Assembly (NCBI GenBank): GCA_964518765.1
Contig: CAZFJC010000001.1
Coordinates: forward strand, 11,595 to 75,594
Length of the DNA stretch: 64,000 nucleotides
Source: an uncultured bacterium
GTDB lineage: Bacteria > Edwardsbacteria > AC1 > EtOH8
Direction: 5' to 3'
A model generated the notes under the pieces. It did not search any database. It worked only from the letters and a program-made list of their open reading frames with translations, and had not been told where the DNA came from. Made by a program: the position numbers and the translations under genes. Positions within the stretch are counted from its first letter, which is position 1. Every line of letters starts with the position of its first letter. Shown piece by piece: positions 10,306 through 54,892 of this stretch.

Positions 10306-10330
10306 AGCCGGCAAAACGCAGCCGAAAGGT

Positions 10331-24424: not shown

Positions 24425-24969
24425 TGTTAGAGAAAAAAGGCAGGAATATACACACGAAATATTTCGATGATATAGATGCTGTCGGTTATAAATATGGGAT
24501 ATTCGTGCCAAGGGAACAACCCATAAATAATCATTTTCTTATCGTTAAAATCGGCGATTATGACGGACGCCTATTTATTATTGATAAGCGTGGCAATATT
24601 GATGATTTTCCTGGCGGACGGTTCTTTATTACCGATGACAAAAGATATTTGGTCACAGAACATAGTTCCGATTCAGATGACACCCTCACTGTTATAAAGT
24701 TATCTGATGGTGCGAAATATTTTTTAGTTGAGCTGCAACGATGTATCTGGCAATGGTACCGAAATGACGGTAAATATTTTTACACTTTGGCTTCATCTAA
24801 AGACGCCACAAAACGATGGCATGAGATATCTGACACAGTGTGTCTGCTAGATTTTAAAAACCGATGTTTATACCAAAGCCCTTCCTTATTGGCTAATGAT
24901 AAAAATAGTGTAAAAGTGCAATATTACTTTGATTTCAATGATTTAAAAGATTGTGAGTGTGAAAGGTAA
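24424..24969 (+). CDS. Orphan hypothetical protein (181 aa) encoded in a low-GC island (about 35% GC against about 62% in the flanks).
   Basis: Complete ORF with AT-rich codon usage. No signal peptide and no recognisable motif; Cys pair at the C-terminus (DCECER). Confidence 0.5.
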   Translation: MLEKKGRNIHTKYFDDIDAVGYKYGIFVPREQPINNHFLIVKIGDYDGRLFIIDKRGNIDDFPGGRFFITDDKRYLVTEHSSDSDDTLTVIKLSDGAKYFLVELQRCIWQWYRNDGKYFYTLASSKDATKRWHEISDTVCLLDFKNRCLYQSPSLLANDKNSVKVQYYFDFNDLKDCECER

Positions 24970-28798: not shown

Positions 28799-28861
28799 TT
28801 TCTTAATTATCAAAGTATTATAATATATCATAAAACCATTGCTTTAAATAAATTATAGCTA

Positions 28862-32676: not shown

Positions 32677-32696
32677 AGCAAATCTCCTGACGAAGA

Positions 32697-32722
32697 AGGG
32701 CCCGTTCGCGGGCCTTTTCCGT
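32697..32722 (+). terminator. Rho-independent terminator (GGGCCCG-ttcg-CGGGCC + TTTTCCGTTTT).
   Basis: GC stem with a tetraloop and T-tract, 20 nt after the stop of the molybdopterin subunit. Confidence 0.5.
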
Positions 32723-32813
32723 TTTACCCTTGATATTGATTTGGTGTTGTGATAAAATAAAAAACTATTAAATTACTGATTCAATTAAACTTACCGCAAC
32801 GGAAAGCCGCCGA

Positions 32814-35429: not shown

Positions 35430-35439
35430 ATAAACCCAG

Positions 35440-37932: not shown

Positions 37933-37984
37933 ACTTCCCACAACGATGAACATGGTCCCCCGCCTCATGGCGTCTCGGTGAGAG

Positions 37985-39322
37985 ATGAAAAAAGCCGAAA
38001 CGCTGCTCATCAAGAACGGCATCGTCGTTACGCTGGGTGACGGCAACAAGGTGCTGCACGGCCACGCGGTTTTGTGCGAAGGCAAGCATATCAAAAAGAT
38101 CGCCCCGCAGAAGGCGTTCCGCGGCAGTTACCACAAGGTGATAGACGCCGCGGGCCAGGTCGTCCTCCCCGGATTCATCAACGTCCACATGCACTTCTAC
38201 AGCACCATGGTGCGGGGCCTCGGCAAGGCTTCGCCTTCGGCCAATTTTCAGGAGGTGCTGGAGAACCTGTGGTGGCGGCTCGACAAGAAGCTGACGCTGG
38301 ACGACTGTTATTATTCGGCGCTGCTGCCGCTGATAGATGCCGTCAAACACGGGACCACCACGCTGATCGACCACCATGCCTCGCCCTTCGCCGTCACCGG
38401 CTCGCTGGACGTCATCGCCAAGGCTGTGAAGCAGGTTGGACTCAGGGCTTCGCTCTGCTACGAATTATCCGACCGCGATGGTGAGAAGATCGCCCACGAG
38501 GGCATTGAGGAGAACGTGGCCTTCATCAAGCGCTGTCAGCGGGAGGACGACGATCGGTTGCGGGCGCTGTTCGGACTGCATGCCTCATTTACGCTCACCG
38601 ACAGGACGCTGGAGCAGGCCGCGGTGGCGGGGCGGGCGCTGGACGCCGGTTTTCACTTGCACGCCGCCGAGGCGAAAAGCGACCAGGAATACAGCGTCGA
38701 GCACTTTGGCAAGAGAGTGGTGGAGAGGTTCCACGAGTACGGTGTCCTGGGGAAGAAGACCATCGCCGCCCACTGCGTCCACGTCAACGACAGGGAGATG
38801 GAACTGTTGGCCGAGACCGGGACGGCCGTGGCCCACAATCCCCAGTCTAACATGAACAACGCCGTCGGTGTGGCGGATATCATCAAAATGGCTCGAAAAG
38901 GCGTTCTGGTCGGCCTGGGCACTGACGCCATGACCGTCAACATGCTGGAGGAGATGCGGGCGGCCCTCTGGTCTCAGCACCTATCTCATCGCAACCCATC
39001 GTGCGGCTTTATGGAGGCCATGGCTACCCTTGCCTCCAACAACGCCAGGATCGCCAACCGATATTGGGAAGGCAAGTTGGGGGTGTTGAAAGAGAACAAC
39101 TATGCGGATATAGTGCTTATCGACTATCATCCTCCGACGCCGTTCGATGAGAGTACCTTCCTTGGCCACCTGTGTTTCGGGCTTTCCCAATCGGCGGTGG
39201 ACACCACCATCGCTTCTGGCCGGGTGCTGATGGAGAAAAAAAGGCTGAGGCTGGACATCGACGAGGCCGAGGTGGCCGCTAAGTCGCGGGAGCTTTCGCA
39301 GAAACTGTGGTCGAGGTTCTAA
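37985..39322 (+). CDS. SsnA-like amidohydrolase (chlorohydrolase/aminohydrolase family).
   Basis: FINVHMHF metal-binding HxH; about 445 aa, typical of SsnA/guanine-deaminase-like amidohydrolases. Confidence 0.65.
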   Translation: MKKAETLLIKNGIVVTLGDGNKVLHGHAVLCEGKHIKKIAPQKAFRGSYHKVIDAAGQVVLPGFINVHMHFYSTMVRGLGKASPSANFQEVLENLWWRLDKKLTLDDCYYSALLPLIDAVKHGTTTLIDHHASPFAVTGSLDVIAKAVKQVGLRASLCYELSDRDGEKIAHEGIEENVAFIKRCQREDDDRLRALFGLHASFTLTDRTLEQAAVAGRALDAGFHLHAAEAKSDQEYSVEHFGKRVVERFHEYGVLGKKTIAAHCVHVNDREMELLAETGTAVAHNPQSNMNNAVGVADIIKMARKGVLVGLGTDAMTVNMLEEMRAALWSQHLSHRNPSCGFMEAMATLASNNARIANRYWEGKLGVLKENNYADIVLIDYHPPTPFDESTFLGHLCFGLSQSAVDTTIASGRVLMEKKRLRLDIDEAEVAAKSRELSQKLWSRF

Positions 39323-39337
39323 CTAAAGGTAATTAAC

Positions 39338-40555
39338 ATGAGCAGCCTCTATCGGCAGATTATCGATAAATCGAAGGAGTACGAAGCCGCCGTTGTCGAT
39401 TTCCTGATGGACATGGTGCGCATACCGTCCCCGTCCCGCCAGGAGCGAGAGGTGGTCCAGCGGATAAAGCGGGAGATGGAAAAGGCAGGTTTCCCCGAGG
39501 TGAGGATCGATGGGCTGGGAAACGTTATCGGCAGGATCGGTTCCGGTCCCCGCGTCATCGCATTCGACGCCCACATCGATACGGTGGGCCCCGGCGACCT
39601 CGGTGCGTGGAAGGGGGGCGGGCCTTTCGAACCCAGGATCGAAGATGGGAAGGTATACGGGAGAGGCACGGTTGACCAGGAGGGGGGCATGGCCTCGATG
39701 GTATATGCCGGGAAGATCATGATGGACCTAAAGCTCAATGACCAGTTCACCGTTCTCTTCACCGGAACGGTAATGGAGGAGGACTGCGACGGGCTGTGCT
39801 GGCAGTACCTTATCAACGAGGAGCAGATCAAACCCGAGTTGGTGATCATTACCGAGCCCACCAACATGAATATTTACCGCGGCCACCGAGGCCGGATGGA
39901 GATCAGGGTAAGCTTCTTCGGCCGCTCCTGCCACGGATCGGCCCCGGAGCGAGGCGACAACGCCATCTACAAGGCCTCGCGCTGCGCCCTGGAGGTCGAA
40001 AAGCTTAACGAACGCCTGAGATCCGATGCCTTTCTGGGCAAGGGTACGGTAACCGTGACCCAGGCGACCTCTAGCTCGCCCTCGCTCTGCGCTGTGGCCG
40101 ACGGCGCCAGCCTGCATCTGGATCGCCGGCTGACCAAGGGCGAGACCGGGGAATCTGCCGTAGCCGAGGTGGTGGACGCCGCCAAAAGGGCCGGGCTCAA
40201 GGATGGGGACTTCAAGGTCGAGGTCCTGCGATATGCCGAAAAGTCCTATACCGGCTTAGTATATCCCGCCGAAAAATACTATCCCACCTGGTCCATGCCC
40301 GAGGACTCGCCTTTTCTGAAACAGGCGGTGGAGGCCTACCGGGGCATTTTCCACAAGGAGCCGCTGGTCGACAAGTGGACCTTCTCCACCAATGGGGTGA
40401 CCACAGCCGGGATGAAGGGTATACCGACGCTGGGGTTGGGCCCGGGCAACGAGGTCCACGCCCACGCCCCTAACGAGCACTGCCCGGTGGAGCACCTGTC
40501 CGGCGCGGCCGCCTTCTACGCGGCGCTGGTGGGGCGGCTGAATGGAAAGGTCTAA
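39338..40555 (+). CDS. YgeY-like M20-family peptidase/deacylase.
   Basis: M20 dimetallo-hydrolase pattern (AFDAHIDTV ... GRGTVDQEGG ... TEPT ... GHRG). Confidence 0.7.
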   Translation: MSSLYRQIIDKSKEYEAAVVDFLMDMVRIPSPSRQEREVVQRIKREMEKAGFPEVRIDGLGNVIGRIGSGPRVIAFDAHIDTVGPGDLGAWKGGGPFEPRIEDGKVYGRGTVDQEGGMASMVYAGKIMMDLKLNDQFTVLFTGTVMEEDCDGLCWQYLINEEQIKPELVIITEPTNMNIYRGHRGRMEIRVSFFGRSCHGSAPERGDNAIYKASRCALEVEKLNERLRSDAFLGKGTVTVTQATSSSPSLCAVADGASLHLDRRLTKGETGESAVAEVVDAAKRAGLKDGDFKVEVLRYAEKSYTGLVYPAEKYYPTWSMPEDSPFLKQAVEAYRGIFHKEPLVDKWTFSTNGVTTAGMKGIPTLGLGPGNEVHAHAPNEHCPVEHLSGAAAFYAALVGRLNGKV

Positions 40556-40560
40556 GTAGG

Positions 40561-41775
40561 GTGTCGGCATTCTTCTATCGATGCACCAGCTGCGGCCGCA
40601 CTTACGGCCGTACAGAAATACGCTATCTCTGCACGGAATGCGGCAAGAAGTACCGACCGGGACAGCCGTTGTCCGGCGTGCTGGAGGCGGTGTTCGACTA
40701 CAAGGCGATCGCCAGGAGATTCGACAGGAGACGGCCGGACTGGTCGCTGTTCGCGGCCGTCGAGCCGGCATATTACCCCAAATATCCTGTGGGCAAGACG
40801 CCGTTCTTCAAGGCGGAACGGCTGGGTCAGGCGCTCGGCCTCTCCGACCTCTGGATCAAGAACGATGGGCTCAACCCCAGCGGATCGCTCAAGGACCGGG
40901 CCTCTTTCCTGGTGGTGGCCGAGGCCAACCGGCTTGGGGAGAATCGCCTCGTCGCCGCCTCCACCGGCAACGCGGCCAGCGCCCTGTCCGCAGTCTGCGC
41001 CGCCGACGGCAAGCAGGCGGTGATCTTCGTTCCCAGGAACGCTCCCCGGGCCAAGCTGGTGCAGATAATCCTCTATGGGGCCCGGATCATACTGGTCGAC
41101 GGCACTTACGATGACGCCTTCCGCCTATCGCTCGAATATACCAGAAAAAGGGGCGGATTGAACCGCAATACCGCCTATCATCCGCTGACCATCGAGGGCA
41201 AGAAAACCGTGGCCTTGGAGATCTTCGAGCAAAGCGGGTTTAAGGCGCCGGACGTTGTGGTGGTGCCGGTGGGCGACGGGGTGATCATCTCCGGCGTATA
41301 CAAGGGATTTTGGGACCTGAAGCAGGCCGGTTTGATCCGCAAACTACCCGAGCTTGTCGGCGTCCAGGCGGAATCATCTGATGCCATACATAACTATATA
41401 GTAACCGGAAGGTATCGGAACGCCCTAAAACCTTCCACCATAGCCGATTCGATCTCGGTCTCCACCCCCAGCAACGCCCACCTGGCCAGAAGGGCGGTTC
41501 TGGATAGCCAGGGTTTTTCGCTGACCGTAAGCGATCAGGAGATCCACCGGGCGCAGTCGCTGCTGGCGGGAACCGCTGGCGTATTCGCCGAGCCGGCGTC
41601 TTCGGCTGCGGCCGCCGGCCTAGCCAAGGCCGCCAAGCTAGGCAAGATCAAGCGCCAGCAGCAGGTGGTGCTGCTGGTAACCGGACACGGGTTGAAGGAT
41701 ATCGAGCCGCCGTTGTCGAAAATCAGGCTGCCGAAGCCGGTGCCGCCAAGGCTGGATGCCATAACAGCGCTATGA
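40561..41775 (+). CDS. Threonine-synthase-like fold-type-II PLP enzyme with an N-terminal zinc-ribbon (GTG start).
   Basis: CTSCG ... CTECG zinc-ribbon; PLP-lysine motif GSLKDRAS; glycine loop region. Confidence 0.55.
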   Translation: MSAFFYRCTSCGRTYGRTEIRYLCTECGKKYRPGQPLSGVLEAVFDYKAIARRFDRRRPDWSLFAAVEPAYYPKYPVGKTPFFKAERLGQALGLSDLWIKNDGLNPSGSLKDRASFLVVAEANRLGENRLVAASTGNAASALSAVCAADGKQAVIFVPRNAPRAKLVQIILYGARIILVDGTYDDAFRLSLEYTRKRGGLNRNTAYHPLTIEGKKTVALEIFEQSGFKAPDVVVVPVGDGVIISGVYKGFWDLKQAGLIRKLPELVGVQAESSDAIHNYIVTGRYRNALKPSTIADSISVSTPSNAHLARRAVLDSQGFSLTVSDQEIHRAQSLLAGTAGVFAEPASSAAAAGLAKAAKLGKIKRQQQVVLLVTGHGLKDIEPPLSKIRLPKPVPPRLDAITAL

Positions 41776-43103
41776 GACGGACCCTGGTAAGAAATGGCAC
41801 CGTATATCTTGAGGACGGCCCGGAGACAGTCGACCTTCTTATCGAAAACGGGCGAATAGCCGACATCGGCAAGTTCGATCATCCGATCGCCGACTGCCTA
41901 ACCATTGATGCTAGAGGGCTCCACGTCCTTCCCGGGCTGATAGACATCCACACCCATTTGGATGACTCAATAGGCGGCTATAGGCTGGCGGACAGCTGGC
42001 CCAGCGGCTCGGAGATCGCCATAAGAAGCGGGATCACTACCCTCTGCTCATTCATTACTCAGCGTCACGGTAGACCGCTGTCCGAGGCGGTGGAGGAGTC
42101 TCTGGGAAAGGTGGGCGGAAGGTCAAGCTGCGATTATTCTTTCCACCTGACCCCGGTCAGCTTCGAAGCCTCGGATTGGGTTTATATCGAAAAACTGCTG
42201 GCCGACGGGTTCCGGACGTTCAAATTCTACACCACCTACCGTCGGGAAGGGATCCTCACCGATTACCCCACGCTGAAAAGGCTGATGGCCAGGATAAAGG
42301 ACATGGGGGCTAAGGTGCTGGTGCATTGCGAGGACGACGAGATCCTAAACCGGAGCCTGTCGGCCGTGGCCGACAGGACGGCGGCCTTTGGGCATGCTCT
42401 TTCACGCCCTATGCAGGCGGAGGCAGAGGGGATCGAACGCGTGTTGGAAATAGCAGGCCAGACCAGGTGCCCGACGCATATTGTGCATGTTTCCTCCGCT
42501 TCGGGAGCCGGGATAATTGGCAGGCATAAGCAGGACCTGCCGGTGACATGCGAGACCTGCCCGCAATACCTTTTCCTGGACGAGGAGAAGCTCAAGGGAG
42601 AAAACGGACACCGTTTCATATGTTCTCCACCGCTGAGATCGATAAAGGACAAAGAGGAGTTGCGGCAGCTGGCGGCGGCCGGAGCCTTCGACCTTTACGC
42701 CAGCGACCACTGCGCCTTCAGCAAGGTGGACAAGGACCAGAACCGAGGCGACTTTTCTAAAGTCCCCAACGGCCTGCCGGGGATAGGAACCTTGGCGCCG
42801 TTGCTGTATGAACTACATGGTGATTTCGGCATAATAGCCCAGCGGCTGGCAGCCAACCCCGCCAGAGTTGCCGACCTTTACCCGCGCAAAGGGGCGATCC
42901 GTAAGGGATCCGACGCTGACCTGGCCATTTTTACGTCCAATGGCCCAGAGACGCCGGTGAGGTCAAGCCTAGCGGAAGTTTACGAACCCTATGACGGGAA
43001 GTCGACCCGGATTTTGGCGAAGCATGTCCTGCTGCGAGGGCGCCTGGTCGCCGAGGACGGAGCGGTGTTGGAGGAATCAAATCATTTTGGGACGAGAGCA
43101 TGA
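41772..43103 (+). CDS. Cyclic amidohydrolase (D-hydantoinase/dihydropyrimidinase-like, HyuA-like).
   Basis: IDIHTHL metal-binding HxH; FKFY carboxylated-lysine context; about 440 aa. Confidence 0.7.
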   Translation: MRRTLVRNGTVYLEDGPETVDLLIENGRIADIGKFDHPIADCLTIDARGLHVLPGLIDIHTHLDDSIGGYRLADSWPSGSEIAIRSGITTLCSFITQRHGRPLSEAVEESLGKVGGRSSCDYSFHLTPVSFEASDWVYIEKLLADGFRTFKFYTTYRREGILTDYPTLKRLMARIKDMGAKVLVHCEDDEILNRSLSAVADRTAAFGHALSRPMQAEAEGIERVLEIAGQTRCPTHIVHVSSASGAGIIGRHKQDLPVTCETCPQYLFLDEEKLKGENGHRFICSPPLRSIKDKEELRQLAAAGAFDLYASDHCAFSKVDKDQNRGDFSKVPNGLPGIGTLAPLLYELHGDFGIIAQRLAANPARVADLYPRKGAIRKGSDADLAIFTSNGPETPVRSSLAEVYEPYDGKSTRILAKHVLLRGRLVAEDGAVLEESNHFGTRA

Positions 43104-45373
43104 AAGAGAGTTCCAAAGCATGGCGCAACGACGCCTACGCCAAAGTGACGGGAAGGGCGAAGTATACCGGCGACCTAAAGTTTCAGGGTATGCTCCATGC
43201 CGCCCCGGTTTACACCGATTTTATCCACGCCAGGATCAGACGCCTGGACGCTTCCTCGGCCTTGAAATGCGCCGGGGTGGTGCGGGTAATAACGGCCGGG
43301 GACGCTCCGGGATCGGCGGTCTTCGGGCAGATCATCCGGGATTACAGGATCCTGGCCGACGACAAGATACGCTTCCACGGCGACGTGGTGGCGGTGGTGG
43401 TGGCCGAAACCAGGGAGGAGGCGGTCGAGGCCACCAGGCGGGTAGTGGTAGAGGCGGAGGAGCTGCCGGCGGTCCTGGATCCGGAGGAGGCCATGAAGGC
43501 CGGGGTGGTTTTGGTCCACGAATCCCACGGCTCAAATATCATCAGCCATCACAAGATTAGGCGGGGGGACGCCGAGGCGGCGCTGAAAAAGTGCGACCAT
43601 GTCATCGAACATGAGTTCCGCACCCAGCTGGTGGAGCACGCCTATATAGAGCCGGAGGCGGCGGTGGCCGTCCCGAGGCCGGACGGCGTGATGGAGATCT
43701 TCGCCAGCACCCAGCACCCTTTCTCCACCAGGCGCTTTGTGGCCGCCTTCCTGGAAGTTCCCCTGGCTGACGTCGAGGTGAGAACCGTTCCCATAGGCGG
43801 CGGCTTCGGGGGGAAGGACGACACCGCCTCGGTGGTCGCCGCCCGGGCGGCCCTGGCGGCCAGGCTGACCGGACGGCCGGTCAAGATGTCCTACGACCGT
43901 GAGTGGTCGATGCGGGAGAGCTACAAGCGCCATCCCTACCGGATAAGATATCGAATGGGCTTTTCCAAACAGGGGAAAATAGAGGCCTGCCAAGTCCGTG
44001 TGTTGGCCGACGCCGGCGCCTACTGCTCGGTGACCCCCTGGGTAACCTGGAGGTCCACCGTCCAGTGCTGCGGGCCCTACGAAGTGGCCCACGTCCATTG
44101 CGATGTCTACGGGGTCTATACCAACAATGTGGTCACCGGAGCCATGCGCGGATTCGGCTCGCCTCAAATAAACTTTGCCGTGGAGCAGTTGGTGGAGATA
44201 GCGGCTGAGAGGTGCGGCCTTTCGGCCACCGAGTTCCGTAAGCGGAACATGCTGCGGCAAGGGTCGGTAACCATCACCGGGCAGAAGCTCGACGGGCACA
44301 AGGTCAGCCTGGAGCAGGCCCTAGACACCACCCTGGAGTCAGCCGATTTCTACAACAAGTACCGGCGCTGTTCCTTCGGTAAGAGAGACGGCGAAGAGCT
44401 TTACGGCATCGGGTACGCCATGAGCTACCGCGGCGTCAGCCTGGGGGCCGAGGGGGTGGACTTCAACTCGGCGGTGATCAACGTCCAGTTCGACGGCTCC
44501 ATCCTGCTAGAGGCGGCCGTCCACGAGAACGGCCAAGGCTCCGAAAGCGCCATGATCCTGATCTGTGCCGAGGAGCTAGGGGTGGATAGGGCAAGGATAC
44601 GCTACCGGATGCCGTCTACCTCGAACATCCCCGACGGGGGGACCACGGTGGCTTCGCGAGGCACGATCATGGGTGGCGGGGCGGTGGCCAACGCCGCCCG
44701 CGCCCTCAAGACCAAGCTGGCCGGACTGCTGGCGGACAGCCTGGAATGCGCTGAGGGCGAAGTCCGCTTCCGGGATGATATGATCTGGGGACAGGACGCC
44801 AAGCACAAGCTTTCCTGGCCGGAGGCCATGCAGAAGCTGCTGATGATGCAGGAGTGCCCCATCTCCTTCGGCTCCTTTAAGGCGCCGCCGGTGACCTGGG
44901 ACGAGCACACCGGCCAGGGAAACGCCTACTTCACCTGGGTCTACGGATGCCAAGCGGTGGAGCTTACCGTCAATAAGCGGACGGGTAGGGTGAAGCTTAT
45001 TAGCATGATAGCTTCACACGATGTGGGCCGGGCGGTGAACCGGGACATGGTGCTGGGCCAGTTCTACGGAGGCATGGCCATGGGGGCGGGATACGCCTTG
45101 TTCGAGCAGGTCGAAAACGAGCGAGGCCGCATAGAAAATGTTAATTTTGACAGATACCGCATCCCCCGCTCCAGCGACCTGCCCGAGATGAAGGCGGAGA
45201 TCATCGAGAACCCCGACCCGATATCCCCTTTCGGGGCCAAGAGCATAGGCGAGCCGACCAATGAGCTGATGGCGCCGGCCATCGCCAACGCGCTATACAA
45301 CGCCACCGGCCGCCGGCATTTCGAACTACCCATAAAGCTGAAACCGGAGATGCAAGGCGATCGGCAATGGTAA
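43100..45373 (+). CDS. Second molybdopterin-binding molybdenum hydroxylase large subunit (XdhD-like).
   Basis: XDH/AOX-family a/b hammerhead and MoCo-binding domains (GGGFGGK ... GEPT); 757 aa. Confidence 0.8.
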   Translation: MKESSKAWRNDAYAKVTGRAKYTGDLKFQGMLHAAPVYTDFIHARIRRLDASSALKCAGVVRVITAGDAPGSAVFGQIIRDYRILADDKIRFHGDVVAVVVAETREEAVEATRRVVVEAEELPAVLDPEEAMKAGVVLVHESHGSNIISHHKIRRGDAEAALKKCDHVIEHEFRTQLVEHAYIEPEAAVAVPRPDGVMEIFASTQHPFSTRRFVAAFLEVPLADVEVRTVPIGGGFGGKDDTASVVAARAALAARLTGRPVKMSYDREWSMRESYKRHPYRIRYRMGFSKQGKIEACQVRVLADAGAYCSVTPWVTWRSTVQCCGPYEVAHVHCDVYGVYTNNVVTGAMRGFGSPQINFAVEQLVEIAAERCGLSATEFRKRNMLRQGSVTITGQKLDGHKVSLEQALDTTLESADFYNKYRRCSFGKRDGEELYGIGYAMSYRGVSLGAEGVDFNSAVINVQFDGSILLEAAVHENGQGSESAMILICAEELGVDRARIRYRMPSTSNIPDGGTTVASRGTIMGGGAVANAARALKTKLAGLLADSLECAEGEVRFRDDMIWGQDAKHKLSWPEAMQKLLMMQECPISFGSFKAPPVTWDEHTGQGNAYFTWVYGCQAVELTVNKRTGRVKLISMIASHDVGRAVNRDMVLGQFYGGMAMGAGYALFEQVENERGRIENVNFDRYRIPRSSDLPEMKAEIIENPDPISPFGAKSIGEPTNELMAPAIANALYNATGRRHFELPIKLKPEMQGDRQW

Positions 45374-45828
45374 CCTACGTGAACGGCCGAAGGCACCAGT
45401 TGAACGAACGTGACCTGGGAAAGAGCCTTCTTGTTTATCTACGGGAAGACCTGAACCTGACCGGGACCAAGAACGGCTGCGGCATCGGGGTCTGCGGGGC
45501 CTGCACCGTTCTACTGAACAGCCGGCCGGTGCGCTCCTGCCGCTTGAAGGTAGCCGAAATTGTCGACAGCAACGTCTTGACCATAGAGGGCCTATCTCGG
45601 GAGGATGGCACGCTCCACCCCCTTCAACAAGCCTTCCTCGATGCCGGCGCCGTCCAGTGCGGTTTCTGTACCCCGGGCATGGTGCTGACCGCCCACGCCT
45701 TTCTCATACGGAACCCGAGCCCCAGCCGAGACCAGATCCGGCGTGCTATATCCGGGAACCTCTGCCGGTGCACTGGTTACCAGCAGATCATAGACGCCAT
45801 CGAGGCGGCGGCCCCTCATTATCGTTAA
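45367..45828 (+). CDS. [2Fe-2S]-binding small subunit of the molybdenum hydroxylase.
   Basis: CGIGVCGACTV ... QCGFCTPG ... CRCTGY. Confidence 0.85.
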   Translation: MVTYVNGRRHQLNERDLGKSLLVYLREDLNLTGTKNGCGIGVCGACTVLLNSRPVRSCRLKVAEIVDSNVLTIEGLSREDGTLHPLQQAFLDAGAVQCGFCTPGMVLTAHAFLIRNPSPSRDQIRRAISGNLCRCTGYQQIIDAIEAAAPHYR

Positions 45829-45851
45829 GAAGAGTGTTAGACCAAGCTTCT

Positions 45852-47945
45852 ATGGAAAAGTCCTCGATATCTATCTTCGCTCTTGCGCTGCTGGCCGCTG
45901 GCGTATGCGCCCAGCCAATACCGCCAACCGCCAGTACGATCGAATGGACCGACAGCATCCACGGTTACCTCAGGAGGGACGAATACCACTGGCTGAAAAA
46001 CAGGGAGGACCCGGAGGTTCTGGCCTATCTCCGGGCGGAGAACGTCTATGCCGATACCATGCTTTCGCAATCAAGGAAGCTTCGGGAAAGGCTGTATCGG
46101 GAGATGAGAAAAGGGGTCCGCGACGAGGACCTTTCCGTGCCGGTCAAGGTCGACAGCTTCTACTACTACGACCGAACGCTGAAGGGTAAGGAATACAGCC
46201 TCTACTGCCGCAAGAAGGGAAGCCTTAAGGCCCGGGAGGAGGTCCTGCTGGATGAGAACAAATTGGCGGAGGGCAGAAAATACTTTTCCATCGATGGGAC
46301 TAAAATCAGCCCCGACCATAGAATTTTAGCGTATCTGGCCGATACCAGCGGCGCCTTCCTCTACACCATATATTTCAAAGACCTGTCCGAAGGTAGACTA
46401 GTTGATTCTATCTCCTCATCCCTGGGAATGGCGTGGGCTTCGGACAGCCGGACCGTCTTCTACGAGGCATGCGATTCGACCCAAAGAGCGGACCGCATTC
46501 TCCGACACCGTTTGGGAGAACCGGCCGACAGCGACCGGGTGGTCTACCATGAAAAAGATCCGGAGTTCACCTCCAGCATCTACCGGTCCCAGTCCCGCAA
46601 ATACCTTATCATTCATTCCTACAGCAAGACGACCACCGAAGCCTGGCTCTGTCCGGCCGACCGCCCCGATTCGGGCTTTACCTTGTTCCAACCAAGGAAT
46701 CCCGGCATCGAATACTATCTGGAGCACCGCGGCGATTCGCTGTACGTCTTTACCAACGATAGTGCCGAAAACTATCGTCTCCTCTCCGCGCCGATCAGCG
46801 GTTGGCAGCATGTGCCTTGGAACCAGGTCATTCCCGGACGCCGGGACGTTCTCTTGGAGGATGTCCGGCTATACCGCGATTACCTGGTGGTGATGGAACG
46901 GGAGCGCGGCCTCCAGAAATTGCGGGTCATCTCACGGGACGGAACGATCGACAGGTACCTTACATTTCCGGAGCCGACCTACTCAGTCTACCCCTGGCGG
47001 AGCTACGAATTTGATGCCACCCTTTTACGCTATACCTACAACTCCATGGTCACCCCACCGGCGGTATACGACTACGACATGAGATCTGGCTCCTACCTGC
47101 TGAAGAAGCGATACTCGGTGCCAGGCTACAAACCGGAAAGATATGTATCCGAGCGCATCTATGCGCCAGCGCCAGACGGCGAGATGATCCCCGTCTCCCT
47201 GGTCTACCGCCGCGATCTCAGAAAGCCCGGCGGAAATCCCTGTATGCTGAGAAGCTATGGGGCATACGGAACGAGCAGCAATCCCAATTTCAGCTCCACC
47301 GGCATCAGCCTGCTGGACCGGGGCTTCATCCTGGCCATAGCCCATGTGCGGGGTGGCCAGGAGTTGGGCCGCCGATGGTACGTCGACGGCAAGCTGCTGA
47401 AGAAGCTGAACACCTTCACCGACTTCATCGCCTGCGCCGAGCACCTAGTGGCCAAGGGGTACACCTCGCCTTCGCTCCTGGCCATCGGTGGCGGCAGCGC
47501 CGGGGGGCTGCTCATCGGGGCGGTAGTCAACATGAGACCGGACCTGTTCCGGGCCGCGGTCCTCGACGTTCCGTTCCTGGACATGATCAACACTATGCTG
47601 GACCCGACCATCCCGTTGACCACCATCGAGTACCAGGAATGGGGAGACCCAAGGATTAAGCAGTATTACGAGTACATGGCCTCCTATGCACCCTACGAGA
47701 ACATCAGGGCCCAGGATTACCCGGCCATGCTGGTGACCGGAGGGTTGAACGACGCCAACGTTCCCTATTGGGAGCCGGCCAAGTGGGTGGCCAGGCTGAG
47801 AAGGATGAAGACCGATTCCAATCCGTTGCTCCTGAAGATCGATATGTCCAGCGGGCACGGCGGGGCCTCGGGGCGATTCGCCTACCTTAGGGACACGGCT
47901 TTCGAGTTCGCTTTTTTGCTGGACATAATGGGGATTAAAAAATAG
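45852..47945 (+). CDS. S9A prolyl-oligopeptidase-family peptidase (oligopeptidase B-like) with a signal peptide.
   Basis: Signal peptide (IFALALLAAGVCA). N-terminal beta-propeller region and C-terminal catalytic domain with GGSAGGLL nucleophile elbow. The track start at 45657 is an upstream artefactual extension. Confidence 0.75.
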   Translation: MEKSSISIFALALLAAGVCAQPIPPTASTIEWTDSIHGYLRRDEYHWLKNREDPEVLAYLRAENVYADTMLSQSRKLRERLYREMRKGVRDEDLSVPVKVDSFYYYDRTLKGKEYSLYCRKKGSLKAREEVLLDENKLAEGRKYFSIDGTKISPDHRILAYLADTSGAFLYTIYFKDLSEGRLVDSISSSLGMAWASDSRTVFYEACDSTQRADRILRHRLGEPADSDRVVYHEKDPEFTSSIYRSQSRKYLIIHSYSKTTTEAWLCPADRPDSGFTLFQPRNPGIEYYLEHRGDSLYVFTNDSAENYRLLSAPISGWQHVPWNQVIPGRRDVLLEDVRLYRDYLVVMERERGLQKLRVISRDGTIDRYLTFPEPTYSVYPWRSYEFDATLLRYTYNSMVTPPAVYDYDMRSGSYLLKKRYSVPGYKPERYVSERIYAPAPDGEMIPVSLVYRRDLRKPGGNPCMLRSYGAYGTSSNPNFSSTGISLLDRGFILAIAHVRGGQELGRRWYVDGKLLKKLNTFTDFIACAEHLVAKGYTSPSLLAIGGGSAGGLLIGAVVNMRPDLFRAAVLDVPFLDMINTMLDPTIPLTTIEYQEWGDPRIKQYYEYMASYAPYENIRAQDYPAMLVTGGLNDANVPYWEPAKWVARLRRMKTDSNPLLLKIDMSSGHGGASGRFAYLRDTAFEFAFLLDIMGIKK

Positions 47946-47955
47946 GAGAAAACCA

Positions 47956-48714
47956 ATGGATCCCAAAATACGTCAACGGCTTTATTTTTTTGTTGGCGGT
48001 CTGGTCACTTTGTTGTTTCTAGGATCTTCCGCTTCAGCCGCCTTTTTTATCGATCTGGAGGCTGGCGCTGTTTTTAACGGTTATAATGATGTACGCATCC
48101 CGGGTAAGGGAGGCACCCGGATCTCGCTCTCCCGGGAGCTGAACTCGGAAGCAGTCCCCTACGGACGGGCGAGAATAGGTCGAAGCCTTGGCAAACGCCA
48201 CAACCTGAGCCTTCTGGTGGCCCCGCTTCGCATCGAGGCTTCAGGCATCGCGGCCAAAGACATCGTCTATCTGGGGGAGACCTTTACCTCAGGCAGCGCG
48301 CTGACCTCCTCATACCGCTTCGACTCCTACCGTCTTACCTATCGTTGGGATGGGCTCCATAGGAGAAAATTGGAGGCCGGGATCGGATTCACCGCCAAGA
48401 TTCGCCACGCCTCCATAAGCTTGTCAGACACGGACAGATGCGTCGAAAAAAAGAACACCGGCTTCGTGCCCATCGTCAATTTCCGTGTGGCCTGGCGGCC
48501 GTCGGAGCGGCTGACGGCGCTTTTGGAGGGCGACGCCCTGGCCGCGCCGCAGGGCCGGGCCGAGGACGTTTTCGTCGGCGCCGCCTGGAGGCTGGGCAAA
48601 CGTGTCTCGCTCAAAGCCGGATACCGGTTGCTGGAGGGCGGGACCGACAATGACGAGGTCTATACCTTCAGTCTTTTCCATTACGCCGCCATGGGGGCTA
48701 TGATCGACCTATGA
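47956..48714 (+). CDS. Hypothetical outer-membrane/secreted beta-rich protein.
   Basis: Signal peptide (LLFLGSSASAAF); alternating hydrophobic pattern; aromatic-rich C-terminus. Confidence 0.4.
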   Translation: MDPKIRQRLYFFVGGLVTLLFLGSSASAAFFIDLEAGAVFNGYNDVRIPGKGGTRISLSRELNSEAVPYGRARIGRSLGKRHNLSLLVAPLRIEASGIAAKDIVYLGETFTSGSALTSSYRFDSYRLTYRWDGLHRRKLEAGIGFTAKIRHASISLSDTDRCVEKKNTGFVPIVNFRVAWRPSERLTALLEGDALAAPQGRAEDVFVGAAWRLGKRVSLKAGYRLLEGGTDNDEVYTFSLFHYAAMGAMIDL

Positions 48715-49292
48715 CCACTGTCAAGGAGCTTGTCTACAGGAACCGCAGCTTCCGGCGTTTCCGGCAGGAGAGCAGTATTTCGCTGGAGAGCTTGAAGGCC
48801 CTGGTCGACCTGGGAAGGATGTCGGCTTGCAGCGCCAACAGGCAGCCCCTGAAGTATGTGATTTCAACATCTCCGGAAGCGAACTCCTCGATCTTCCCGC
48901 ACCTGAGGTGGGCCAAAAAACTGCCCAACTGGCCGGGGCCGGCTGAGGGGGAGAGGCCGGCAGCCTACATCGTAATCGTTGGGGATAGAGAGGTCAGCCA
49001 AAGTTTCGGACAGGACTACGGCATAGCCGCCCAGAGCATCATGCTGGGGGCGGCCGAGGCAGGCCTGGGGGGCTGCATGATAGCCAACATCGACCGTAAG
49101 GGGCTTCGGGAGTCCCTCAAGCTCGGAATCCGTTACGATATCCTATTGGTTCTGGCCTTGGGCGTGCCAGCGGAGACCGTCGTGGTTGACGAGCTCGAGC
49201 CGGGCGACGATCCGAATTATTGGCGCGACGCTCAGCAGGTGCATCATGTGCCTAAGCGCCGGTTGGACGATATCATCATCGCGCACTACTAG
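48711..49292 (+). CDS. Nitroreductase-family protein.
   Basis: RRSFRRF N-terminal motif and a nitroreductase-like fold signature. Confidence 0.65.
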   Translation: MTTVKELVYRNRSFRRFRQESSISLESLKALVDLGRMSACSANRQPLKYVISTSPEANSSIFPHLRWAKKLPNWPGPAEGERPAAYIVIVGDREVSQSFGQDYGIAAQSIMLGAAEAGLGGCMIANIDRKGLRESLKLGIRYDILLVLALGVPAETVVVDELEPGDDPNYWRDAQQVHHVPKRRLDDIIIAHY

Positions 49293-49301
49293 CGTCGTGG
49301 C

Positions 49302-50437
49302 ATGAAGTGGTCCCCGGATAGTGTTCGCTTCGACCGCAATGAGCTCTCCGGCGCCTTCGGCGATATCGGAACCGATCTGCCGCTGCTGGTGGGCATGGTT
49401 GCCGCCTGCGGCTGGACTCGGCCAGCACGCTGGTGATGTTCGGCCTTATGCAGGTCTTCACTGGCCTATGTTACGGTTTGCCGATGCCGGTTCAGCCCCT
49501 GAAGGCCATGGCGGCCCTGATGATCGCCCGGAAACTTCCGGCGGCCACCCTATACGGGGCCGGGCTATCCATCGGAACCTTGATGCTCCTGCTGACGCTG
49601 ACCGGCACTTTGGAATGGCTGGCCCGGGTCATACCAAAGTCAGTGGTGAGGGGGATTCAGTTCGGGCTGGGACTTTCCCTGGCCAAGATAGCGGCCAGCA
49701 ACTACGTTTTAGCGGAGTCGTGGCCGGGTTACCTCCTGGCGGCGGCGAGCTTTGCCATCGTCGCCGTATTTATGGGGAACCGACGTTTGCCGCCGGCACT
49801 GCTGGTGATCCTTTTAGGGGTTTTATATGCCCTGGTTTTCAGAATGGACCCAGCCGCCCTGGGCCAAGGCATCGGCGTGTCACTGCCTCGGATAAACTTG
49901 ATAAGGTGGCCCGACATCATGACCGGATTCTTGGCCCTGGCGCTACCGCAGATACCCCTGTCCATAGCCAATTCAGTGGTGGCCACTAATCAGACTCTGG
50001 GAGATCTTTTCCCCGATAGGAAGGTTGGCATCAGAAGGATAGGCCTCAGCTATTCGCTGATGAACCTGGTTAACGCCTGGCTGTCCGGGGTGCCCACCTG
50101 CCACGGTACCGGCGGTCTGGCCGGGCACTAAGCTTTCGGGGCGCGCACCGGAGGATCGGTGGTTATTTGCGGGTCCATGTACCTGGCCCTGGGTCTCTTT
50201 TTTCCCAGATCATTTGGCGAGGCCGTCAAGGCTTTCCCCATGCCAGTACTCGGGGTCATCCTTTTATTCGAATCACTGGCGCTAATGATGTTCGTGCGCG
50301 ATATCGCCGCCGACAGCCGGGGGCTGTTCATCGCCTTGCTGGTAGCGCTGTCGTACCTGGCCCTGCCGAACGGTTACGTGATCGGAATTATTCTGGGAAG
50401 CGCGCTGCACTATCTGCCTTTGATCTTTAAACACTGA
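49302..50437 (+). pseudogene. MOT-family (PF16983-like) molybdate/oxoanion transporter gene disrupted by a -1 frameshift near 49412 and an in-frame TAA at 50129-50131.
   Basis: N-terminus FDRNELSGAFGDIGTDLPLLVGM (frame 0) continues as LDSASTLVMFGLMQVF ... PMPVQPLKAMAA only in another frame. Later GTGGLAGH-TAA-AFGARTGGSVV reads through the family's conserved GGLAG-x-Y-x-FGARTGG block if TAA replaces Tyr. Confidence 0.55.
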
Positions 50438-50452
50438 TTCGAGGGAATCCTT

Positions 50453-51649
50453 ATGAGCCTGACGAAGGTAGACCGGATCCTGGTTTCCCTAAAGAGGCTT
50501 AAGGCCAACATGAAGGGTCGGGACTTCCTGCTGACGTGGGAGCAAAGCATCGATGAGATCAAGGCCGTGGCCCTGGTGGCCGAAGCGATGCAGGATCTGC
50601 ACCGGCAGGGGCGGAGCCTGAGGATTTTCGACTCCGGCCTGGCCATCTCCATCTTCCGGGACAAGTCAACCCGTACCCGTTTCTCCTTCGCCTCGGCCGC
50701 CAATCTGTTAGGGCTGTCGGTGGCCGACCTGGACGAGGAGAAGTCGCAGATCGCTCACGGAGAGACGGTGCGGGAGACGGCCAACATGATCTCGTTTCTC
50801 ACCGAGACCATCGGCATCCGTGATGACATGTTCCTGGGCGAGGGCAACAGGTACATGAGAGAGGTGGGGGAGGCGGTGACCGAGGGCCATGAAAACGGGG
50901 TGCTGCACCAGCGGCCCAATATCATCAATCTTCAGTGCGACATCGACCACCCCACCCAGAGCATGGCCGATTTGCTGATGCTCCAGGACCACTTCGGCGG
51001 CTTCGAAAAAATGAGGGGGAGGAAGATCGCCATGACCTGGGCTTACTCCCCCAGCTACGGCAAGCCGCTCTCGGTGCCCCAGGGCATCATCGGCCTGATG
51101 ACCCGGTTCGGCATGGAGGTGGTGCTGGCGCATCCCCCAGGCTACGGTCTGTTGCCGGATGTTCTTGAAGTGGCCAGGAGAAACGCTGCCGCCTGCCGAG
51201 GCCAGTTTCAAGTGGTCGACTCCATGGAGGAAGCCTTCAAGGACGCCGACGTGGTATATCCCAAGTCCTGGGCGCCATACAAGGTAATGGAGCGCCGCAC
51301 CGAGCTGCTGAAGAGCAACGACCGCCCGGGGCTGGCCGAATTGGAGAAGGAGTGTCTGGCCAACAACGCCAAATACACCCTTTGGGAGTGCGACGCCCGT
51401 AAGATGGCGCTGACACGCGGCGGAAAGGCCCTCTACATGCACTGCCTGCCGGCCGACATCAGTGGGGTCTCATGTAAGCAGGGAGAGGTCTCGGCCGAGG
51501 TGTTCGATAAATACCGGCTGCTGACGTACCGCCAGGCCGGATTTAAACCATTCGTCATCGCGGCCATGATATTTATAGCCAAGTTCGACAATCCGGCAAA
51601 GGCCCTGGCAAGGATAGTGAAATCAAAAAGACAGAGGTTGAAAGCTTGA
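50453..51649 (+). CDS. ygeW: YgeW-type knotted carbamoyltransferase.
   Basis: STRTRFSF carbamoyl-phosphate-binding motif and HCLP motif; about 400 aa, typical of YgeW. Confidence 0.8.
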   Translation: MSLTKVDRILVSLKRLKANMKGRDFLLTWEQSIDEIKAVALVAEAMQDLHRQGRSLRIFDSGLAISIFRDKSTRTRFSFASAANLLGLSVADLDEEKSQIAHGETVRETANMISFLTETIGIRDDMFLGEGNRYMREVGEAVTEGHENGVLHQRPNIINLQCDIDHPTQSMADLLMLQDHFGGFEKMRGRKIAMTWAYSPSYGKPLSVPQGIIGLMTRFGMEVVLAHPPGYGLLPDVLEVARRNAAACRGQFQVVDSMEEAFKDADVVYPKSWAPYKVMERRTELLKSNDRPGLAELEKECLANNAKYTLWECDARKMALTRGGKALYMHCLPADISGVSCKQGEVSAEVFDKYRLLTYRQAGFKPFVIAAMIFIAKFDNPAKALARIVKSKRQRLKA

Positions 51650-52011
51650 CCTGTTACATGCTGCAGATAGATCGCTCAGCAAAAGAATAAATTGACTATC
51701 ATATTAATTCAGAAAAACGGAAAACCCACCCTGGCCGGCGGTGTTCGGTCAATCCGATGCACGCCGGCAAAGGGGTCCGGGGGCGCCGAGCGACTGGGGG
51801 AGGGGCCGAAAGCGGAAGCGAAGGCTATTCCCAGCCCAAACCTTGCACCAACTGATGATGATTAATGCCGTAAAACCTGATTATTGTATTGAGCCCTGCG
51901 CCCCCGGCCTGAGCCTGCCGAAGTGTGCCTCTTCGGCCTTTTGAGGGCAGTCAGAAACGGCAGATAGCTTTACCCGAAAAGGCAGGATGGTCTAGAAAAA
52001 AAGGAGCATAG
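51650..52011 (+). promoter_or_regulatory. About 360-nt structured leader upstream of the PLP-enzyme gene, including a nested hairpin (51735-51767) and a terminator-like hairpin GCCGAAG-n7-CTTCGGC + cTTTT (51925-51950).
   Basis: This is the longest non-coding gap in the window. It is GC-rich and structured in the middle, with an AT-rich promoter-like 5' end and AAAGGAG RBS before the ATG at 52012. Confidence 0.3.
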
Positions 52012-53469
52012 ATGTCCCGCATCATTAAGACCATGAACCATGAAGTGATAAAGCGCACCGCCCGACGTTGCCGGGAACGCAACATCATCATTCCTACCTT
52101 CGCCCAAATGAGGGACCCGACGCTGATACCCAACGCCATCAGGACGAAGCTGAAGGGGGTAGGGCTGTGGGATGTCAATCCTCTCAACCTCTTCCGCATC
52201 ACCTGGAAGAACGACGTCGGCACCGGACTGTTCGGCGGCGTAAACTATTTGGAGGTGCCCCGAGAGCTGACCGGAATCCGGGCTCGAGTGATCGGCTTGG
52301 TGGGCAAGTACTTCCCCACCGGAGCGCACAAGGTGGGCGCGGCCTTTGGCTGCCTGGTGCCCAGGCTGGTGAGTGGCGAGTTCGACCCCACCGTTCACAA
52401 GGCGGTGTGGCCGTCCACTGGAAATTACTGCCGCGGCGGGGCGTTCGACTGCGCCCTGTTGAACTGCACGGCCGTGGCCATCCTGCCTGAGGAGATGTCT
52501 CAGGAGAGGTTCGACTGGCTTCGCCAAATAGGCGCCGAGGTCATCGCCACCCCGGGCTGCGAATCCAACGTCAAGGAGATCTACGACAAGTGCCACGAGC
52601 TGCGGACCGATCCGCGCCACGTGATCTTCAACCAGTTCGACGAATTCGGCAATCCCATCTGGCACTACCATGTCACCGGACCAGCCATCCAGGAGGTGTT
52701 CGAGGGGATGAAGGACGATAAGCTGCGGGCCGCGGCCTACATCTCTGCCACGGGATCGGCCGGGACCATCGCTGCCGGCGACTACCTGAGAAAGCTGCAT
52801 CCGCATATTAGGGTGGTAGCCACCGAGGCCCTACAGTGCCCCACCCTTTTCCTCAACGGATTCGGCGGCCACCGTATCGAAGGGATCGGCGATAAGCACG
52901 TGCCCTGGGTGCACAACGTTCGCAACACCGACGCCGTGGCCGCCATCGACGACGAGGACTGCATGAGGGTTCTCAGGCTCTTCAATGAGCCGGCGGGACG
53001 TGAATATATCAGGTCTTTGGGGATATCCGAGGACGCCGCCACAAAAGTGCCGCTGCTGGGGATCTCGTCGATATGCAACCTGCTGTCCGCCATCAAGGCC
53101 GCTAGGTACTACGAGCTAAACGAGCGGGATGTGATCTTCACCGTATTTACCGATTCCATGGAGCTGTACCAGTCGCGGATACAAGAGCAGAAGGAGATAA
53201 AGGGCGACTACGATAGGATGCAGGCGGCCCGCGACTATGAGGGGGCAATAGCCCACCTGCGCGACGACTGGTTCCGCGAGCTTAACTACCGGGAGCGGAA
53301 ACAGATCCACAACCTTAAATATTACACCTGGGTGGAGCAGCAGGGCAAGACCTACGAGGAGATATTGGCGCAATGGGATCCCGAATACTGGAGGCAGATA
53401 TTCGAGGACGAGGTGGGATATTTCGATCGGTTGATCAAGGAATTCAACACCCAGGTGGGCCTCGAGTAA
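52012..53469 (+). CDS. PLP-dependent fold-type-II enzyme (YgeX/diaminopropionate-ammonia-lyase-like or cysteine-synthase-like) with a long C-terminal extension.
   Basis: FPTGAHKVGAAFG lysine context and a glycine-rich loop (SATGSAGT). Confidence 0.55.
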   Translation: MSRIIKTMNHEVIKRTARRCRERNIIIPTFAQMRDPTLIPNAIRTKLKGVGLWDVNPLNLFRITWKNDVGTGLFGGVNYLEVPRELTGIRARVIGLVGKYFPTGAHKVGAAFGCLVPRLVSGEFDPTVHKAVWPSTGNYCRGGAFDCALLNCTAVAILPEEMSQERFDWLRQIGAEVIATPGCESNVKEIYDKCHELRTDPRHVIFNQFDEFGNPIWHYHVTGPAIQEVFEGMKDDKLRAAAYISATGSAGTIAAGDYLRKLHPHIRVVATEALQCPTLFLNGFGGHRIEGIGDKHVPWVHNVRNTDAVAAIDDEDCMRVLRLFNEPAGREYIRSLGISEDAATKVPLLGISSICNLLSAIKAARYYELNERDVIFTVFTDSMELYQSRIQEQKEIKGDYDRMQAARDYEGAIAHLRDDWFRELNYRERKQIHNLKYYTWVEQQGKTYEEILAQWDPEYWRQIFEDEVGYFDRLIKEFNTQVGLE

Positions 53470-53514
53470 AACTAGCTGCCTTCCTTGCCTCAAGGCGGTG
53501 GATAGGATAAAGTC

Positions 53515-54123
53515 ATGGCGAAGAAACTCGCGGCCGTCATCCTGGCAGCGGGAAAGGGGAGAAGGATAGGGCATCCCAAGTTATTCCTGGAGCTGGGCGG
53601 GGTGCCCTTCTGGAGACTGATATCTGGAAGGCTGAGGAAAGCCGGTATAAGGGATATGGTGGTGGTCGTCAGAAGGTCTCAAAAGGGCTCGGTTGATAAA
53701 GATAAAGAAAGGCTGGTGAGGGTAGCAGTCAACAGGAATCCGTCCTGGGGCATGTTCTCGTCAATCCAATGCGGCCTGCGGGCGATGAAAGGGTTTGACG
53801 GGTATCTTCTATGCCCGGTTGACCATCCCGGCGTCAAGGTGCGGACCTATGAGAAACTCCACCAGGGTTTTCAAAAAAATCCAGAGGCCGTGGCCAGGCC
53901 GATTTTCCAGGGGAAAAGGGGTCACCCCATCGTCATTCCGAAAAATTTGGCCGACCGCCTGCTTAACAGCAATCCCAGCAACAGATTGGACTATTTGATC
54001 CAGAGAATGGGATGGCCACTGATCGATATTAAGGTAAAAGATAAATATATAATATTCAACATCAATACATATAAAGAGTTAGAAATTGCAGGAAAACATC
54101 TTAGATCTATTATATGCCGCTAA
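53515..54123 (+). CDS. mocA: Molybdenum cofactor cytidylyltransferase (MocA/MobA-like NTP transferase).
   Basis: AVILAAGKGRRIG nucleotide-binding motif; about 200 aa. Confidence 0.7.
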   Translation: MAKKLAAVILAAGKGRRIGHPKLFLELGGVPFWRLISGRLRKAGIRDMVVVVRRSQKGSVDKDKERLVRVAVNRNPSWGMFSSIQCGLRAMKGFDGYLLCPVDHPGVKVRTYEKLHQGFQKNPEAVARPIFQGKRGHPIVIPKNLADRLLNSNPSNRLDYLIQRMGWPLIDIKVKDKYIIFNINTYKELEIAGKHLRSIICR

Positions 54124-54892
54124 AAGGGATAACAGGAAGCTTTGGTTGGTGACCGTGATTTCCACCCAGGGCTCGACCCCGGGAAAGCCAGGGATGAAAA
54201 TGGTGGTATATCCGGACGGAACCACGGCCGGGACCATAGGCGGCGGCCAGGTGGAGAGGGAGGTCATCGCCGAGGTGATGGAAAAACGTTATCCGGTACT
54301 GACGAAACGCCAATATCAGATGGGCGGGGACTTCGGAGAAAAAGGCGGCATGGCCTGTGGCGGAGCCCAGGAGTTGATCATCGAGCCGTTGGGGACGGCC
54401 ACCCCCCTCTACATCATAGGGGCCGGGCATTGCGCCGTGGAGCTCTCGGCCCTGGCCGGCCGTTGCGGTTTTGCGGTGACGGTGATCGACGATCGTCCGG
54501 AGTGGGCCAACAGGGAAAAACATCCGCAGGCCCATACTTCCATCTGCCAGGGATACTCGGACCTGGAAAAGCACATTGCATTCTCGGAAGATGCTTTCAT
54601 TGTCATCATGACCCACCAGCATCTTCATGACGAGGAAGCGCTCAGGTACTGCATCCGCAGGAAGTGGCGCTATCTGGGCATGATCGGCAGCCGACGCAAG
54701 GTCGGACTTCTCTTCGACAAGCTGGCCGCGGAGGGAGTGGAACCCTCTGTTCTGGGCCGTGTCCGCGCTCCCATAGGTTTGGACATCGGATCGGAGACGC
54801 CGGCCGAGATAGCGGTTAGCATCGCCGCTCAGCTGATCGAGGTGAGAAACGGCAGAAAGGGATATGCGGCGGCCAGGTCTGAGGCGTCTTGA
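54086..54892 (+). CDS. xdhC: XdhC/CoxI-family molybdenum hydroxylase accessory protein (TTG start, overlaps mocA).
   Basis: N-terminal XdhC domain (WLVTVISTQGSTPGKPGMKMVV) and Rossmann-like C-terminal domain (LYIIGAGHCAVELSALA). Confidence 0.7.
   Translation: MQENILDLLYAAKRDNRKLWLVTVISTQGSTPGKPGMKMVVYPDGTTAGTIGGGQVEREVIAEVMEKRYPVLTKRQYQMGGDFGEKGGMACGGAQELIIEPLGTATPLYIIGAGHCAVELSALAGRCGFAVTVIDDRPEWANREKHPQAHTSICQGYSDLEKHIAFSEDAFIVIMTHQHLHDEEALRYCIRRKWRYLGMIGSRRKVGLLFDKLAAEGVEPSVLGRVRAPIGLDIGSETPAEIAVSIAAQLIEVRNGRKGYAAARSEAS

Follow-up and report, generated by a model that had tools for sequence, protein, structure and literature searches.

The MOT1-family locus at positions 49302-50437 of the window (the whole 64-kb stretch of DNA from an uncultured bacterium that was analysed) is, with a probability of roughly 0.88, a genuine pseudogene, inactivated recently, of a MOT1-family transporter gene of bacterial type. 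In the sampled population the Gly37 codon has lost one base; translation from the native start therefore stops at 44 residues, with most of the membrane domain still to come, and all of the protein beyond residue 37 is lost. In addition, a C-to-A change has made a TAA of the Tyr277 codon (TAC), within the half-helix motif of TM10, which in the SLC26-type fold helps to form the anion-binding site. Either lesion alone should be a null mutation. The TAA is probably best read as neutral decay after the deletion.

The ORF list and two-frame translations of positions 49100-50700 reveal three ORF pieces at the locus, not one ORF:

49302-49436, plus strand: ORF piece 1, frame 0; MKWSPDSVRFDRNELSGAFGDIGTDLPLLVGMVAACG, followed by the out-of-frame residues WTRPARW and TGA
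49433-50131, plus strand: ORF piece 2, -1 frame; includes LDSASTLVMFGLMQ and, further on, GTGGLAGH, and ends with the TAA at 50129-50131
50159-50437, plus strand: ORF piece 3, in the frame of piece 2

No single uninterrupted frame thus leads from start to stop in the window copy, and translation from the native start yields a 44-aa product. Set against intact orthologues, the locus reads as follows:

49302..49411, plus strand: 5' segment of the pseudogene in the original frame, codons 1-36 and positions 1 and 2 of codon 37 (Gly)
49411..49412, plus strand: 1-nt deletion in the Gly37 codon, TGC GG^C TGG, after which reading is in the -1 frame
49434..49436, plus strand: premature TGA in the original frame, after 7 out-of-frame codons
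49412..50128, plus strand: middle segment, residues 38-276 of the repaired protein, readable in the -1 frame only
50129..50131, plus strand: nonsense codon TAA in place of Tyr277, TAC in relatives
50132..50437, plus strand: 3' segment, residues 278-378, ending in its own native stop, TGA (50435-50437)

The 5' segment includes the FGDIGTD stretch of TM1, as seen in the alignment to intact orthologues. DNA alignment places the missing base at the third position of the Gly codon, at 49411/49412, where relatives have GGA CTG or GGG CTC and the window has GG-CTG. A sequence-only reading of this DNA had proposed the loss of one C near 49412; the loss of one base stands, but C is only one of four possibilities. 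The TAA at 50129 is a single C-to-A transversion away from the TAC of the relatives and does lie, as had been claimed, on a conserved Tyr: of 120 homologues, 103 have Y in this column, 13 have H, three F and one C, and the column is the one given as (Y/H) in MOT1 signature motif 2 (see below). The two-frame translation bears out both positions as well as the peptide strings given for them, and homology to intact homologues runs unbroken across both lesions.

Both lesions recur in sequencing runs that were assembled separately. Exact-protein look-up, with both flanking genes and the 3' fragment of 92 aa as queries, led to Logan assemblies of five runs, which are independent in the sense of separate runs and separate assemblies and may come from one study or site; a literature search on the five run accessions gave no match. 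Over the length of the gene, their contigs agree with the window at 100% identity. The identical deletion is present in three of them (L006, ERR4534291; L007, ERR4529291; L008, ERR4539293), the identical TAA likewise in three (L006 again; L009, ERR4539747; L010, ERR4549765), and the sole differences from the window lie in L010, within ~30 bp of the contig end, inside ygeW. The deletion site, GCGG^CTGG, is outside any homopolymer. None of the other ~55 window ORFs is split; they lie tightly packed on the plus strand and encode full-length Pfam domains, and 13 equal their orthologues on contig L001 in length, which together indicates that the assembly is not generally error-prone. If errors were placed at random, the chance of a second one falling into the same 1.1-kb gene would be about 1136/64000 = 0.018.

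The sequence-only reading had offered two sequencing or assembly errors in a truly intact ORF as its other main option. It can be said in favour of this that the supporting contigs are all short-read Logan assemblies at the level of the consensus, and that the run accessions fall within one number range, so that their source could be common; the artefacts would, however, have had to arise identically in three assemblies for the deletion and in three for the TAA, at a site without homopolymer context and in the one broken gene of 64 kb, and no intact allele is on record in the protein collection. Error as the source of the lesions is very unlikely. As the same defects occur in five separate runs, the locus is taken as an ordinary young pseudogene, the reading that had been put first from the letters alone, and the assembly of the window as trustworthy at the lesion positions.

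A further scenario is a polymorphic population, in which an intact, functional allele persists at appreciable frequency beside the lesioned haplotype. Minor alleles are hidden in consensus assemblies, and incomplete fixation is plausible for a pseudogene that is young; nevertheless, the lesioned haplotype is the one seen in all five assemblies, at 100% identity across the gene, and the 5.8-billion-cluster protein collection returned no intact allele of more than 82% identity. Two exact patterns accepting either allele had 0 matches in JGI metagenomes, a result that was also counted against polymorphism but is otherwise regarded as uninformative on allele status; the 203-aa gene call, searched as an exact protein, matched no record. 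Taken together, a persisting intact allele is improbable, if more readily imagined than an artefact, and a population carrying the pseudogene is the preferred reading.

The tight packing of the window deserves mention in its own right: the ~55 credible ORFs over 1-62295 are all on the plus strand, many with 4-nt start/stop overlaps, and a co-directional stretch of 62 kb is unusually long. An in-frame TGA at 16330-16332 was considered as a second lesion or as a selenocysteine codon and rejected, being the boundary of two different, adjacent genes in the same frame, the second of which starts at the codon after the TGA:

15859-16332, plus strand: SLOG/LOG-like gene
16333-16608, plus strand: acylphosphatase gene

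Elsewhere, a 181-aa ORF (24424-24969) between dprA and a DUF362/4Fe-4S gene has no Pfam match and a strikingly low GC content (0.44/0.31/0.33 at the three codon positions, vs ~0.60/0.45/0.80 elsewhere); it may be foreign DNA or no gene. The sole RNA gene detected in the window with Rfam is the following:

10157-10235: tRNA-Pro(GGG)

An ORF with an amino-acid-permease domain (10187-12334) overlaps it, which indicates that the true start of this ORF is further downstream. Finally, PD40 beta-propeller and Omp85 domains occur together at two loci, 17573-20449 and 57702-62295; one is a single 958-aa ORF with Peptidase_MA_2, PD40 and Omp85 domains, an unusual fused architecture; at the other, a tricorn-like ORF of 943 aa precedes the ORF of a POTRA/Omp85 protein and overlaps with it by 245 nt.

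The family to which the gene belongs was recognised from a repaired translation, in which one base is added to the Gly37 codon and the TAA is read as Tyr, giving 378 aa. It matches PF16983 (MFS_MOT1) with 183.1 bits in two stretches, far above the gathering cut-off of 30, in agreement with the earlier family assignment; NCBIfam holds no model for the transporter. Two signature motifs have been published for MOT1 proteins, PXPVQPMKX(I/L)(A/G)AXA (motif 1) and FGXMPXCHG(S/A)GGLAXQ(Y/H)XFG(A/G)RXG (motif 2) (PMC8959823), and both can be placed in the window:

49481..49522, plus strand: MOT1 motif 1, PMPVQPLKAMAALM; beta-strand and half-helix, residues 64-77 of the orthologue model
50081..50152, plus strand: MOT1 motif 2, LSGVPTCHGTGGLAGH*AFGARTG; beta-strand and half-helix, residues 266-278 of the orthologue model

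In motif 1 the PxPVQP-K core is present, with M replaced by L, (I/L) by M and the final A by M relative to the published form; this variant core, PVQPLKAMA, is invariant across 15 aligned homologues. In motif 2 the CHG-GGLA--(Y/H)-FGAR-G core can be recognised, with the TAA in place of the (Y/H) codon; the Q of the published motif is H in the window and likewise in 118 of the 120 homologues.

A structural model was made with AlphaFold2 for P0001, the intact orthologue of 82% identity (pLDDT 89, pTM 0.87). It has the SLC26/UraA-type inverted-repeat fold of 7+7 TM helices, with TM-scores of 0.74 to the TM domain of SLC26Dg and 0.77 to UraA, and in the fold search also matches the TM domains of AtSULTR4;1 and BicA; it comprises 379 aa, without STAS or any other extra domain. 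A sequence search of the PDB returned no relative of the transporter, which was placed by fold search only. In the SLC26/NCS2 fold two beta-strand/half-helix elements, TM3 and TM10, form the substrate site. Both MOT1 motifs coincide with the two short elements of this kind in the model, the TAA falling on the second. The bacterial MOT1 family forms a branch of the SulP/SLC26 superfamily that lacks the STAS domain; its annotation reads "putative sulfate/molybdate transporter".

A search with the repaired translation against the 5.8-billion-cluster protein collection gave 6303 matches, the best of which, P0001 (82% identity) and P0002 (80%), cover 100% of the query and are both intact at 379 aa. 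P0002 is carried by contigs L001-L003 and P0001 by L004. Altogether, an intact orthologue of 379-385 aa and 70-82% identity is present in five relatives, and it occupies the same slot, nitroreductase-MOT1-YgeW, on contigs L001, L004, L011, L012 and L013. The genes concerned in the window are:

48711..49292, plus strand: intact nitroreductase-family gene, upstream neighbour (Pfam; synteny)
50453..51649, plus strand: intact gene of the knotted carbamoyltransferase YgeW, downstream neighbour (NCBIfam NF005538, 659 bits, cut-off 453; synteny)
27089..54892, plus strand: purine / xanthine-dehydrogenase (XDH)-family cluster, all genes listed below intact (profile matches)

Gene order on L001-L004 is that of the window. 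MOT1 is preceded by genes for an amidohydrolase, an XDH-family Mo subunit, a 2Fe-2S subunit, an S9 peptidase, a 252-aa protein and the nitroreductase, and followed by those for the YgeW carbamoyltransferase, a 485-aa PLP enzyme, MocA-like and XdhC-family proteins, MutL, MiaA, and tricorn-like and BamA-like proteins. In the nearest genomes found by a GTDB scan (UBP2 UBA2255, 74%; Candidatus Edwardsbacteria, 73%; another MAG, 71%) MOT1 is in all three cases intact and in the same slot. The window copy is therefore no stray fragment but orthologous to a conserved member of the cluster; in the UBP2/Edwardsbacteria lineage, MOT1 is a fixed component of a catabolic cluster of the purine / xanthine-dehydrogenase type. 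The window cluster comprises adenine deaminase, the XDH FAD/Fe-S subunit, two Mo-binding subunits, a DPD-like reductase, two cyclic amidohydrolases, an M20 peptidase, two PLP enzymes, YgeW, a MocA-like cytidylyltransferase and an XdhC-family maturation factor.

Two peculiarities of the cluster may be recorded here. The gene for leucyl-tRNA synthetase (32814-35429) lies in its middle, with the first XDH Mo subunit on one side and the DPD-like reductase on the other. A spacer of 362 bp (51650-52011), partly AT-rich, separates ygeW from the gene for the 485-aa PLP enzyme; its counterpart measures ~60 bp on L001 and L004, ~240 bp on L011 and L012, and ~37 bp on L013. The window spacer has no match to an Rfam family at gathering thresholds, and may be a promoter or regulatory region or the remnant of an insertion.

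As for the age of the inactivation, dN/dS values for MOT1 (Nei-Gojobori) are 0.16 between the window and L001, 0.11 between the window and L004, and 0.13 between L001 and L004, comparable to those of the flanking genes (0.08-0.28), at a divergence of the window copy of dS ~0.7-1.0. The likeness to intact relatives indicates that purifying selection acted over almost all of this divergence and that constraint was lost very recently. The gene had been called "decaying" from the letters alone; its inactivation is upheld, and decay is weakly visible, as would be expected when the inactivation is recent. Among six taxa, amino-acid changes unique to the window make up 14 of 364 MOT1 columns, vs 59 of 2807 in seven flanking genes (Fisher p = 0.035), and the window's share of all unique changes is 0.26 in MOT1 vs 0.15 in the flanks (binomial p = 0.025); L001 and L004 have no such excess. 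The window departs from the consensus at four columns with a conservation of at least 95% among the 120 homologues (Q77R, T250S, P259A and Y290C); P259A and Y290C are among its lineage-specific changes and affect near-invariant positions. The median homologue does so at one such column, and 14 of the 120 intact homologues at four or more. The excess of lineage-specific replacements is thus mild and its significance modest (p ~0.03). It fits a short neutral period with roughly half a dozen extra replacements which, by a rough estimate, is about the wait to be expected for a second disabling mutation after the first.

Recoding, which the sequence-only reading had kept as a remote option, finds no support. 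The shift site, GCC GCC TGC GGC TGG ACT, contains neither a slippery heptamer of the type X XXY YYZ nor a homopolymer, and the RNA fold of 49395-49500 (106 nt) has a z of -0.93 relative to shuffled sequences, that is, no stimulatory structure was found there. In the five relatives there is neither frameshift nor stop, the protein being encoded in one frame with TAC at the position of the stop; a conserved recoding signal is accordingly absent. Programmed frameshifting was rejected on these grounds, and a reassignment of TAA on the ground that this codon terminates 14 of 53 window ORFs.

The gene could also still be expressed in pieces, as a split transporter made by termination and reinitiation. 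An ATG of the restoring frame, at 49436, overlaps with the premature TGA (GTGATG, 49432-49438), an arrangement that resembles a termination-reinitiation junction; a GTG start candidate follows 27 nt after the TAA; and the downstream pieces retain a GC3 of 0.71-0.73 and family-level conservation. The TGATG overlap is, however, incidental, as it consists of conserved Val-Met codons present also in an intact relative; a reinitiated product would be without TM1 and would, even so, end inside the binding-site motif of TM10; and retained codon bias and conservation are just what is expected of a young pseudogene. With the points raised against frameshifting and read-through, it is highly improbable that the gene is still expressed by either route, and scarcely credible that the locus still functions, be it as an SLC26-fold transporter split into two or three pieces by reinitiation or as a full-length protein made by -1 frameshifting and TAA read-through. 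An inactivated gene remains by far the better account.

What has been lost with it can be inferred from related proteins and the gene neighbourhood. Molybdate transport has been demonstrated for eukaryotic MOT1 proteins only; none of the bacterial homologues, which are called putative, has been shown to transport it (PMC5840216, PMC10385300), and for this reason the loss of dedicated Mo uptake, as proposed in the sequence-only reading, goes a step beyond the data. Judging from eukaryotic MOT1 and from the surrounding genes, the intact cluster MOT1 would most likely import molybdate for the molybdenum-cofactor enzymes of the cluster: the gene sits among those for the two XDH-family Mo-binding subunits, the MocA-like cytidylyltransferase and the XdhC-family maturation factor. 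The conserved synteny with the XDH/YgeW purine-catabolic cluster in UBP2/Edwardsbacteria supports annotation of bacterial MOT1 as a putative molybdate importer. A purine was considered as the substrate, as the cluster is purine-related and some homologues bear the name "xanthine/uracil permease" at JGI; it is disfavoured by the score with PF00860 (22 bits, below the cut-off) vs that with PF16983 and by the presence of both MOT1 motifs, which make molybdate or a similar oxyanion the preferred putative substrate.

A linkage of this kind is also seen far outside the lineage. Distant MOT1 homologues, from Hymenobacter/Solirubrum and from archaea of the Thermoplasmata, often lie within 10 kb of genes for XDH-family subunits and/or XdhC, at the following loci:

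L031, L032, L037, L041, L042, L044, L047, L053, L055 and L058: distant MOT1 homologues near XDH/XdhC

This suggests a widespread tie of MOT1-family transporters to molybdenum hydroxylases and fits a molybdenum-related role.

Since the Mo enzymes and the maturation genes of the window are intact, molybdate presumably enters the cell by another route, for example through ModABC or a less specific oxyanion carrier, and this natural knock-out beside intact Mo enzymes suggests that the transporter is dispensable. Within the 64-kb window no modABC genes were found, nor was a Moco riboswitch in the Rfam scan. The locus is a clean case of a young, ordinary pseudogene in an uncultured bacterium and as such of little general importance.

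Among known systems, the eukaryotic MOT1 proteins, high-affinity molybdate transporters (CrMOT1 of Chlamydomonas, MOT1;1 and MOT1;2 of Arabidopsis), resemble the window copy in belonging to PF16983, in having no STAS domain, and in the two signature motifs, which are recognisable in the window copy as PMPVQPLKAMAALM and the CHGxGGLAxx(Y/H)xFG(A/G)RxG core. They differ from the bacterial branch in the replacements M to L in motif 1 and Q to H in motif 2, which are branch-wide in the latter, and from the window copy in particular by its frameshift and nonsense codon; the bacterial members described so far are ~26-28% identical to AtMOT1 and uncharacterised (PMC5840216). The SulP/SLC26 and NCS2 transporters of known structure (SLC26Dg, 5IOF/5DA0; AtSULTR4;1, 7LHV; BicA, 6KI1; UraA) have the same 7+7-TM fold as the orthologue model, whereas the orthologue is only 14-18% identical to them, lacks a cytoplasmic STAS domain and is ~380 aa long.

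The cluster is reminiscent of the ygeW-ygfJ-type purine / selenium-associated molybdenum-hydroxylase neighbourhood of E. coli, with which it has in common YgeW (above the NCBIfam cut-off), the Mo and Fe-S subunits of the XDH family, a MocA/YgfJ-like cytidylyltransferase, an XdhC-family factor, cyclic amidohydrolases, an M20 peptidase and PLP enzymes; most of the matches besides YgeW are below equivalog cut-offs. The E. coli region is not known to contain a MOT1-family transporter, whereas in the five relatives of the window MOT1 is a conserved member of the cluster. ModABC, the canonical high-affinity molybdate importer of bacteria, has the same presumed role as MOT1, the supply of molybdate for Moco enzymes, but is an ABC importer of an unrelated family, while MOT1 is a secondary carrier.
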